A DNA stretch of 64,000 bases from the NCBI RefSeq assembly GCF_041886205.1, contig NZ_CP169029.1; one strand, given 5' to 3'. Below the pieces are notes generated by a model that had not been told where the DNA came from, ran no database searches, and was given only the letters and a program-made list of their open reading frames with translations. A program made the translations under genes and the position numbers. Below are positions 33,660-50,876 of the stretch, in pieces. Numbering within the stretch: the first letter of the stretch is position 1; every line of letters starts with the position of its first letter. This stretch comes from Escherichia coli (GTDB lineage: Bacteria; Pseudomonadota; Gammaproteobacteria; Enterobacterales; Enterobacteriaceae).

Positions 33660-34922
33660 TTAAAACTCTTTTCGCAGCCAACTATTGAGTCGCTTGATCC
33701 ACGAGCCAACTGATGCTGTAACACGTTTTTCTACTTCAGCTTCACCGTTAAGATGTGACTCTTTCCCGTAATGAAGCAATCCCACCGCCGTCGAATAATA
33801 CGGCTCCTGAGCATAATCCGTTAAACCGGTAATGTTCAGTGGCGCGCCGATACGCACCTGCGTATGAAACACGCGCTGAGCACAGGCTGCAAGACCTTCA
33901 ATCTGCGCTGCGCCACCGGTTAATACAATGCCTGCCGCCAGGTGATGTTTAACCCCTTGTTGGCGAAGCTTTTCCTGCAACTGCAATATCTCTTCGTTGA
34001 CCAGGTTGAGCAGCTCGGTATAGCGCGGCTCGATCACCTCTGCCAGGGTCTGACGTTGCAGACTCCGCGGCGGACGACCGCCTACGCTCGGCACTTCCAC
34101 GCTCTCATCTTTTCCAACGATGGAACCCAGCGCACAACCGTGGCGAACTTTAATCGCTTCGGCGTCGCTTGGCGGCGTGCCAAAGGCGTAAGCGATATCA
34201 CTGGTCACGACATTGCCAGCATAAGGAATTACCTTAGTGTGGCGCAATGCCCCACCGGTATAAACGGCGATATCCATTGTACCACCACCGATATCGACGA
34301 CGCAGACACCCAGTTCACGTTCATCTTCCGTCAATACCGAATAACTTGATGCCAGACCGGCAAATATCAGTTGGTCAACTTTCAGCCCACAACGTTCAAC
34401 CGCTTTGACGATGTTTTTCGCCATATCGTTGTGGCATGTGATCAGGTGCACTTTTGCCTGCATCCGCACGCCCGAAAGTCCTACCGGATTCTTGATCCCT
34501 TCCTGATAGTCAATCGCATACTCTTGCGGGATCACATGCAGCACACGATGCTCATCGCGCACACGCACCGATTTCGCGGTATGGACGACGTTTTCCACAT
34601 CTTCTTGCGTTACTTCTTCTTCAGAAATAGGCACCATACCAATTTCATTCTGGCAGCTGATGTGCTTACCAGAAAGCGCCAGATATACCGAAGAGATCTG
34701 ACAATCTGCCATCAATTCTGCCTGGTCAATGGCGCGTTGTACGCACTTGACCACGGATTCGAGGTCGTTCACCCCGCCTTTATCCATACCACGCGACGGG
34801 CAGCTGCCCACGCCAATGATATTGACCATACCGTCGGGCAGAACTTCCCCTACTAAAGCGGCAACCTTCGCGGTACCAATCTCCAGTCCTACTACCAGTT
34901 TTCTGTCCGTCGCCTTGATCAT
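33660..34922 (-). CDS. ftsA: Cell division protein FtsA (actin-like ATPase)
   Basis: 420-aa translation [27 protein letters not shown]…. Confidence 0.97.
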
Positions 34923-48811: not shown

Positions 48812-49270
48812 TTATAGAGACAAGTCCTGCAGTCGCTCCGATAAGTCTCCGGTAGCCAACTGCTCTGCGTCGATATCTTCCTTGACCTGTTGATGCCAGG
48901 TTGTTTCATCCCACAGCTCAAACTTGTTGAACTGTCCAACCAGCATCACTTCTTTTGTCAGCCCGGCATGTTGCCGCAGTACTGGCGCGATTAACAATCG
49001 ACCTGCGCCATCCATCTGACATTCGCTGGCATGACCTAACAGTAGGCGCTGCACACGGCGCTCAACCGGGTTCATGCTCGACAGACGCGATAATTTTTGC
49101 TCGATAATTTCCCATTCAGGCAGGGGGTAAAGCAGCAGGCACGGGTGATGAATGTCAATGGTGCAAACCATTTGACCGGCAGCGTTCTCAAGCAGCTGTT
49201 CCCGATAACGGGTAGGCACTGATAAGCGCCCTTTGCTGTCGAGATTGACTAACGTTGCTCCCCGGAACAT
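48812..49270 (-). CDS. mraZ: Transcriptional regulator MraZ
   Basis: 152-aa translation [28 protein letters not shown]…; start at internal ATG 49268-49270. Confidence 0.95.
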
Positions 49271-49289
49271 GCCAGCCTCACCCCTTATT

Positions 49290-49314
49290 CCCACTTTGCC
49301 CCACAATTTCCCAC
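49290..49314 (-). promoter_or_regulatory. MraZ operator: three direct GTGGG repeats at 10-bp spacing in the mraZ 5' region
   Basis: Minus strand reads GTGGGaaattGTGGGgcaaaGTGGGaataa, 20-45 bp upstream of the mraZ ATG. Confidence 0.7.
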
Positions 49315-49871
49315 TGAAAGGAGTTTACGGAGCGGAGGAAAAGCTTGTCAAGCCAGTCACAAGGCATACCGAGGTAAAAAACCCGATGTTTACGGCTAAT
49401 ATCCGCGTTGTTTATTTTACGTCCAACGAGCGCAGCAAATTAACGTTATGAATAGCTGTAAGAAAAAATCCCTCATCGTCATCACCGTTTTAAAATGACT
49501 CACTATTTTCCACAGCAAATATAAAGTGTCAGTTTGCGACGCGAGCGGCATTTTAGGACATATCTTCCCCGGTTAACAGTCCCTGTTGCGTCTGTGTGGC
49601 GCTTGATGCCAGCGGGTTTGCGCAAAAGCAAAGAAAAGTGCTTGTTAAATCGGCAATTCATCTCTGCATGTAACAAAATAATGCAAAAACGCGCTGTCGA
49701 TATCACTTAATTATTGTGAATTTCAGCTGATGAGTTAAGTAACGGGCGGGTTTAAAAGGACTTATCAATAATAGTCAGGAATAGTCTTATTTACTTTAAG
49801 GATATTGATGTCCATTCCCGTACTCTACGCGCCAGAGGGAAATTAACCTGGCGCGTATTTTTGTTTGCGGC

Positions 49872-50876
49872 TTAGCTACGGCTGAGCACGCCGCGGCGAT
49901 AGAGATTACGTTTAATGCGCGTTAAACCAGGTTTTGGCTTACGCGGTTCGTCCAGGCTTGCCAGGACAATCTCCAGCACACGCTCTGCGACATCGCGGTG
50001 ACGTTGAGCCACTGCCAGTACCGGGCATTGCAGGAAATCCAGAAGTTCGTTATCACCAAAAGTAGCAATAGCCAGATCGGAAGGTAACTTACCGTCACGA
50101 CGCAGTGTGACATCCATTACCCCTTGCAACAAAGCAAACGAGGTGGTGAACAGCGCCTGCGGCATCGGATGCGTTTCCAGCCATTTTTCGAATAACTGGG
50201 CAGCCGCCTCCCGCTCATAGCTGTTGGCATAAAGGAAATGCACTTCGCGCGGATCATCTTTCCAGGCAGTACGGAAACCTTGTTCACGCAGGAAGCTGAC
50301 AGAAAGCTCCGGCAGCGCGCCAAGATAAAGCACCGTCTCGGCGGGAAACTTACGTAACTCTTCCGCCAGCATTTCGGCATCATCCTGATCGGCACCAACC
50401 ACGCTGGTAAAGTGTTCACGATCGAGGGCGCGGTCCAGCGCGACAATCGGGAACGGGTCGTTAGCCCAGCGTTGATAAAAAGGATGCTCAGGAGGCAACG
50501 ACGTCGAAACAATAATGGCATCAACCTGACGCTGTAAAAGGTGCTCAATGCACCGCATTTCGTTGTCTGGCTGATCTTCTGAGCAGGCAATCAGCAGTTG
50601 ATAACCCCGTTGCCGCGCCTGGCGTTCAAGATAGTTAGCGATGCGGGTATAGCTGGTGTTCTCCAGATCGGGGATCACAAGACCAATAGAACGTGTGCGT
50701 CCAGCACGAAGCCCAGCTGCCACGGCGTTCGGGTGGTAATTGTGCTCACGCACCACAGCCATGACTTTTTCAACGGTTTTGTCGCTCACACGGTATTGCT
50801 TCGCTTTGCCGTTAATAACATAGCTTGCAGTGGTCCGCGACACTCCCGCCAGCCGAGCGATTTCATCCAGTTTCAC
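49872..50876 (-). CDS. cra: Catabolite repressor/activator Cra (FruR), LacI family
   Basis: 334-aa translation [38 protein letters not shown]… with N-terminal HTH. Confidence 0.96.

Follow-up and report, generated by a model that had tools for sequence, protein, structure and literature searches.

The question raised by this locus is what occupies the long stretch between cra and mraZ, at the head of the dcw/mra cell-division and cell-wall operon of E. coli. In the window (the whole 64-kb stretch of E. coli DNA analysed here, 64,000 nucleotides), cra (50876..49872, minus strand) is the upstream neighbour and the repressor gene mraZ (48812..49270, minus strand) the downstream neighbour of a 601-bp gap (49871..49271). 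Our results indicate that this gap very probably constitutes the complete cis-regulatory region of the operon. Downstream of mraZ lies rsmH, in the gene order cra-mraZ-rsmH-ftsL-ftsI. The MraZ assignment was obtained with Pfam PF02381 (E = 4e-47, two stretches) and the translation displayed both DXXXR motifs, DSKGR and DGAGR; Pfam likewise assigned a LacI-family protein (Cra) and an MraW/RsmH methylase. A conserved Shine-Dalgarno region, GGGGTGAGG, was found at 49276..49284 on the minus strand, 6 nt ahead of the mraZ ATG (49270).

A preliminary description, made from the letters of the window, had called the gap unusually long, and this was borne out by the curated K-12 record: over the 50 kb from 75 to 125 kb, the cra-mraZ gap was the second longest of about 48, after leuL-leuO (659 bp), and the longest among co-directional gene pairs. 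That record holds no annotation inside the gap, though small proteins and sRNAs are annotated elsewhere in it. Among the Enterobacteriaceae, cra was located directly upstream of mraZ in every locus with both genes (79 fetched), with gaps of 553-733 bp, so that the long gap is a family trait. The leuO-leuL and aroP-pdhR gaps of the same window are likewise several hundred bp long and AT-rich, with several promoters, and also display conserved blocks alternating with spacers whose sequence evolves freely while their length stays fixed. Unlike in long multi-site regions such as leuO-leuL, however, the genes flanking the cra-mraZ gap are co-directional, and the entire gap therefore serves one downstream operon.

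The gap sequence was matched in 5423 of 5426 complete E. coli genomes. Across the gap, two of these 5423 were identical to the window and 5413 displayed 95-99% identity, the small number of identical genomes indicating that the window comes from a less commonly sequenced E. coli lineage. Compared with K-12 (89033-89633), identity reached 97% without indels, and K-12 coordinates are obtained as 138904 minus the window coordinate. Most of the 17 differences occurred in the distal, less conserved half. Operator and core promoter together showed a single base difference, at 49334 in the spacer of the main promoter, where K-12 has an A and the window, together with 42 of the 46 other aligned species, a C.

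The mraZ-proximal part of the gap was the most readily assigned. Three GTGGG boxes with a 10-bp period form the MraZ operator (49290..49314, minus strand; boxes 1 to 3 at 49314-49310, 49304-49300 and 49294-49290), 20-44 nt upstream of the mraZ ATG. The arrangement GTGGG-N5-GTGGG-N5-GTGGG occurred only once in the 64-kb window, with 0 mismatches, and none of 100 dinucleotide-preserving shuffles matched it, even with one mismatch allowed. The preliminary description had reported three such repeats at exact 10-bp phasing upstream of mraZ and had read them as an MraZ operator; the repeats were confirmed at 49314..49290, and the reading is correct, since they are the published MraZ site of E. coli. 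Three GTG(G/T) boxes with this period make up the MraZ site before mraZ in E. coli and in many other bacteria. In E. coli, B. subtilis and Mycoplasma alike, MraZ has been described as repressing the dcw operon from which it is itself expressed, and Bacillus subtilis and Mycoplasma also possess homologous MraZ sites. In K-12, according to the accounts of Eraso 2014 given in PMC8475190 and PMC12957436, MraZ binds the boxes and represses transcription. The operator at mraZ is thus already known, and our analysis adds nothing new to it; compared with the K-12 mra promoter, the locus is the same, only the E. coli strain being another, and no difference of substance was seen. In the alignment on which our statements of invariance are based (47 sequences, each from a different species, more than 20 genera), boxes 1 and 2 read GTGGG in nearly all sequences, with one exception (GTGGT in box 1). 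Box 3 is composed of GTGG followed by a variable fifth base across these 47 species: GTGGG in Escherichia only, and GTGGT, GTGGC or GTGGA in other genera.

The main sigma-70 promoter, Pmra, is located just upstream (49322..49351, minus strand), with a -35 TTGACA (49351-49346) and a -10 TAAACT (49327-49322), and scored 10/12 in our promoter scan. It was invariant in the 47 species and its 18-bp spacer almost so. Such conservation (49328-49345, AGCTTTTCCTCCGCTCCG) is unusual for a promoter spacer. In K-12, the start of Pmra was mapped by Cappable-seq at 89590, corresponding to window position 49314, the first G of box 1, so that the operator covers +1 to +25; SMRT-Cappable-seq placed the start at K-12 89588/89589. 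A start inside box 1 has also been reported for M. genitalium, whose MraZ complex was studied by cryo-EM (PMC12957436). NET-seq revealed a sigma-70-dependent pause at +14/15 of Pmra, which maps inside box 2, and a weak PdhR site overlapping the Pmra -35 has been reported. Pmra (TTGACA-18-TAAACT) thereby initiates within the operator itself, to which MraZ, as described in the literature, binds as an oligomer to repress its own operon, and an operator so placed would block either binding or escape of RNA polymerase.

At the other end of the gap, a candidate cra terminator hairpin was observed (49826..49857, minus strand), whose two arms, 49826-49835 and 49848-49857, are 10 bp long and match perfectly. 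SMRT-Cappable-seq recorded a cra transcript from K-12 87968 to 89082, whose 3' end corresponds to about 49822, 4 nt past the hairpin, as well as a read-through cra-mraZ-rsmH-ftsL transcript. The hairpin would accordingly be a leaky terminator at which cra ends, part of the transcripts continuing into mraZ. The hairpin segment was not conserved between genera and every genus displayed its own hairpin there. In E. coli and E. albertii, the T-run of the post-cra hairpin (49826-49871) was found on the strand opposite to cra, whose own side displayed an A-run; an ordinary sense-strand T-run accompanied the hairpin in the other genera.

Between these two ends, the preliminary description had suggested that the gap might harbour additional promoters, to be sought by mapping of transcription starts, and public K-12 data supported it. 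Cappable-seq listed four plus-strand K-12 starts in the gap, at 89143, 89237, 89360 and 89590 (scores of 6.2, 2.1, 9.4 and 27.2, respectively), the first three corresponding to 49761, 49667 and 49544 in the window and thus adding to Pmra. A tiling reporter assay in LB found exactly two autonomous minimal promoters in the region, at K-12 89317-89357 and 89547-89587; the latter (window 49357-49317) is Pmra, the former (window 49587-49547) an upstream promoter referred to here as P2, and the core sequence is identical in K-12. P2 (49547..49587, minus strand) displayed a -35-like CTGTTA (49579-49574), a -10 TAAAAT (49555-49550), a G+C-rich discriminator GCCGC and a start at about 49544. Its -10 matches the consensus at 5/6 positions and was invariant in 47/47 aligned sequences. 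Its -35 is weak (CTGTTA, 3/6 at 18 bp, or TGTTAA at 17 bp), and P2 was absent from the list produced by a simple consensus promoter scan. From its G+C-rich discriminator, stringent control dependent on growth rate would be predicted. From conservation, the start had been predicted at about K-12 89361 before the data were viewed, and Cappable-seq then gave 89360. Upstream mraZ promoters are also recorded in RegulonDB/EcoCyc, and both Cappable-seq (Ettwiller 2016) and the tiling reporter assay (Urtecho et al.) agree with P2 to the base. In the literature searched, the upstream mraZ promoters were listed and none was characterised; their family-wide conservation and their fixed spacing to Pmra are added by the present analysis. 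P2 is hence a second autonomous sigma-70 promoter, 230 bp upstream of Pmra, whose transcripts have a 274-nt leader and need to traverse Pmra and the operator.

Further upstream of P2 are two weaker starts. The one at 49761 (K-12 89143, score 6.2) belongs to a weak promoter (49761..49773, minus strand) with a -10 TATTAT (49773-49768), conserved in Escherichia and Citrobacter only. The other, at 49667 (K-12 89237, score 2.1), is located at the end of a conserved island (island 2, see below), seven bases past a conserved TATTTT, and was not called an autonomous promoter by the reporter assay in LB. As this assay recorded only two autonomous promoters in LB, both starts may be minor or activator-dependent. 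Inside mraZ, 149 nt into the gene, position 49121 (K-12 89783) was recorded both as a Cappable-seq start and as a Term-seq 3' end.

To the suggestion of further promoters the preliminary description had added that of a small RNA, and it had noted a 67-aa open reading frame. Such an independent gene in the distal region, whether a small RNA or a small protein encoded by the 67-aa or a 44-aa ORF, is very improbable in our estimation. Several transcription starts do occur in the gap, and both ORFs are on the mraZ strand. Yet searches of Rfam at E values up to 10 returned only two chance-level matches, a terminator scan of the gap found none, no Term-seq 3' end was listed between K-12 83641 and 89783, and RNAalifold detected no conserved structure among the 47 species; the small RNA was therefore not borne out. 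Neither did a small protein fare better. Species differed in the length of the ORF opened by ATG 49551 (7-75 aa), an ATG which lies upstream of the P2 start, one-nucleotide indels occurred within islands 3b and 4 (see below), and gene callers placed no gene in the gap of other genomes, as in curated K-12. The indel inside island 4, present in many genera, excludes coding there. The 67-aa ORF itself exists (49503..49706, minus strand, GTG start), but not as a gene, since the length of this stretch differs between species by non-multiples of three. Neither a small RNA nor a protein gene is thus supported in the gap, and the earlier interpretation was borne out for the operator and the additional promoters but not for the small RNA. 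Besides the 44-aa ORF on the minus strand, ORFs of 72 aa and 58 aa were found on the plus strand. The 72-aa one (49233-49451) covers Pmra, the operator and the start of mraZ in antisense orientation.

Comparison across the Enterobacteriaceae, which the preliminary description had proposed for the distal part, was carried out on 80 loci (one genome per species) and revealed near-invariant islands between freely evolving spacers. From the cra side, these are island 1 (49790-49775), which resembles an RcsB/RcsAB box; island 2 (49667..49686, minus strand), TTGyATTATTTTGTTACA, including a -10 TATTTT (49680-49675) and the weak start at 49667; the moderately conserved island 2b (49638..49656, minus strand), TTGCyGAATTAACAnnCAC; island 3 (49582-49517), which includes the P2 elements and island 3b (49517..49549, minus strand), GCCGCnCGCGTCGCAAACTGACACTTTATATTT, the near-invariant start of the P2 transcript; island 4 (49431..49468, minus strand), TTTTTTCTTACAnnTATTCATrrCGTTAAnTTTGCnTCG; and the Pmra-operator block (49353-49290). 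In the 80 intergenic sequences, at least 95% conservation was observed for 14/20 columns of island 2, 23/35 of island 3b and 26/40 of island 4, and 50/64 columns of the Pmra-operator block were conserved to the same degree. Mean majority fractions were 0.89-0.94 in the islands versus 0.47-0.65 in the spacers between them.

Conservation of this kind could in principle reflect mere low divergence among close relatives and be non-functional, as all 80 loci belong to one family and their MraZ proteins are 88-96% identical. The neutral baseline provided by four-fold degenerate sites of cra and mraZ in the same genomes speaks strongly against it. Such sites in cra displayed a mean majority fraction of 0.54, with 1/106 conserved to at least 95%, compared with up to 26/40 columns in an island; in mraZ, the corresponding values were 0.69 and 5/33. 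Moreover, low divergence leaves unexplained why indels are suppressed between islands only, and we regard it as hardly credible. The depth of the comparison is that of the family: among the best 120 MraZ homologues, identity never fell below 85%, and two loci fetched in the search for greater depth again belonged to Enterobacteriaceae.

The distances between the islands were as telling as their sequences. In 77-78 distinct sequences, the P2 -10 was separated from island 4 by 99-102 bp and island 4 from the Pmra -35 by 101-104 bp, while the sequence between P2, island 4 and Pmra was almost neutral despite its fixed length. From island 2 to P2, the distance was either 122-126 or 131-136 bp, two clusters offset by about one helical turn. 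Island 1 was located 97-117 bp (mostly 104-110) from island 2, and the distance between the cra stop and island 2 was floating (137-315 bp). Indels were suppressed whereas substitutions were not, and this, along with the step of one turn, is suggestive of a constraint on DNA geometry, and thus of bound proteins. The near-invariant blocks of fixed spacing would then be protein-binding DNA sites that tune P2, Pmra or both. On these grounds we tentatively propose, as a possible and still rather doubtful reading, that the 450 bp or so upstream of Pmra form a family-wide nucleoprotein control module of helically phased sites. The conserved upstream array is best considered a modest lead with no demonstrated mechanism.

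The same blocks might also act as RNA. Islands 3b and 4 form an inverted repeat whose arms are about 95 bp apart, 3b being the left arm, and pairing of 3b (49542-49521) with island 4 (49449-49430) could produce a 5'-proximal stem in the leader of P2 or cra read-through transcripts, controlling leader stability, elongation or mraZ translation. Given the mutual complementarity of both islands, we kept such an RNA-level role in the long leader as a minority alternative, although an unlikely one. The minimum-free-energy fold of the E. coli leader forms exactly this 17-pair stem, standard pairs occupied 89.7% of the cells in the 47 species versus 31-56% when the partner was slid by 1-3 columns, and one pair displayed GC, GU and AU states with few mismatches. 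However, the slide control is inflated, the structure being derived from one of the sequences, and only one compensatory cell was found, which shuffles equalled; both arms are nearly invariant and hence show no covariation. RNAalifold on the 47 sequences left the interior of the leader unpaired (covariation term of -0.66, no compensatory pairs), leader folding was no better than that of shuffles (z = -0.19) and no premature 3' end was listed in the leader. Furthermore, a stem leaves unexplained both the fixed 101-104 bp between island 4 and the Pmra -35 and the one-turn step between island 2 and P2, which were attributed above to a constraint on DNA geometry. The idea that, in long transcripts, the C-rich Pmra spacer masks the ribosome-binding site was also considered and rejected, as unpaired probabilities displayed no consistent difference in 8 genera.

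Within the array of putative protein-binding DNA sites, island 1 was the one for which a regulator could be proposed. It is a pseudo-palindrome, TAAGACTATTCCTG (49775..49790, no strand assigned), with the family consensus TTmAGAwwAwTCCTTA, and its T..GA....TC core positions were invariant in 56/56 distinct sequences. The consensus of the RcsAB box, reportedly established by Wehland and Bernhard in 2000, is TaAGaatatTCctA; compared with this consensus, island 1 matched at 12/14 positions in the window and at up to 13/14 in Citrobacter. A position weight matrix (PWM) of island 1 was also scanned over K-12 regions around known Rcs targets. The top match of the bdm-osmC locus was located upstream of bdm (16.7, a score reached by at most 0.001% of window positions), and a match upstream of osmC scored 8.7 (about 0.008% of window positions). 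Top-three matches in their respective loci, both at 11.2 (at most about 0.002% of window positions), were found at +4..+19 of flhDC and about 400 bp upstream of wza, and a weak one at -50..-35 of rprA (1.4). We take these five matches to coincide with the known Rcs box positions. The bdm, flhDC, wza and osmC scores being rare among window positions, the resemblance of island 1 to Rcs boxes is real, and its sequence makes it a probable site for RcsB, a regulator of the envelope-stress response.

The position of this candidate Rcs box is less typical. About 480-520 bp separate it from mraZ, which lies downstream; it occupies -28..-15 with respect to the start at 49761 and is at about -115 with respect to that at 49667. 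Rcs boxes are found at about -43 for activation or overlap the start for repression, and relative to the mapped starts island 1 is thus off the usual activating RcsB position near -43. The literature searched, to which RcsB ChIP studies did not belong, contained no paper linking RcsB to the mraZ upstream region; the known Rcs target in the dcw cluster is ftsA1p, in ftsQ. The second-best match to the island 1 PWM in the window, ACTAAGGTAATTCCTTAT (34221-34238, minus strand), was found inside ftsA. This near-palindrome precedes ftsZ by about 620 bp and is distinct from ftsA1p.

The dcw cluster makes FtsZ, FtsI, FtsL and the Mur enzymes, and its adjustment to growth and to the state of the envelope is understood only in part. 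Since loss of MraZ in E. coli is without obvious phenotype, other inputs must exist. If the control module proposed above is real, the RcsB-type box and islands 3b and 4 would assemble factors through which envelope stress and growth state are linked to transcription of the entire operon, acting via P2 and Pmra, upstream of and beyond MraZ autoregulation. What is new here is a base-level map of selected elements, with spacings fixed within about 2 bp, upstream of Pmra across the Enterobacteriaceae, together with a candidate Rcs box and two further invariant sites.

For islands 2 to 4, candidate factors were compared by eye on the basis of their consensus sequences. No convincing or conserved fit was obtained for PdhR, PurR, Cra, GntR, ArcA, CpxR, OmpR/RstA, PhoP, PmrA and EvgA, nor for Fur, ArgR, NagC, TyrR, IHF, SlmA, MatP, DnaA, H-NS, sigma-54 and sigma-28. 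Additional MraZ boxes in the distal islands were discarded as well, a single AAAGTGT being found, on the opposite strand of island 3b, and a loose scan for LexA boxes (CTGT-N8-ACAG) was uninformative (273 matches versus about 233 expected). Closest in the factor comparison came CGTTAATTT, which resembles an H-NS motif, and TTCTTACA, an EvgA-like half-site, in island 4. On the plus strand, TTTTCCACA (49506-49514) fits what we take to be the relaxed DnaA-box consensus, TTWTNCACA, and is present in Escherichia only.
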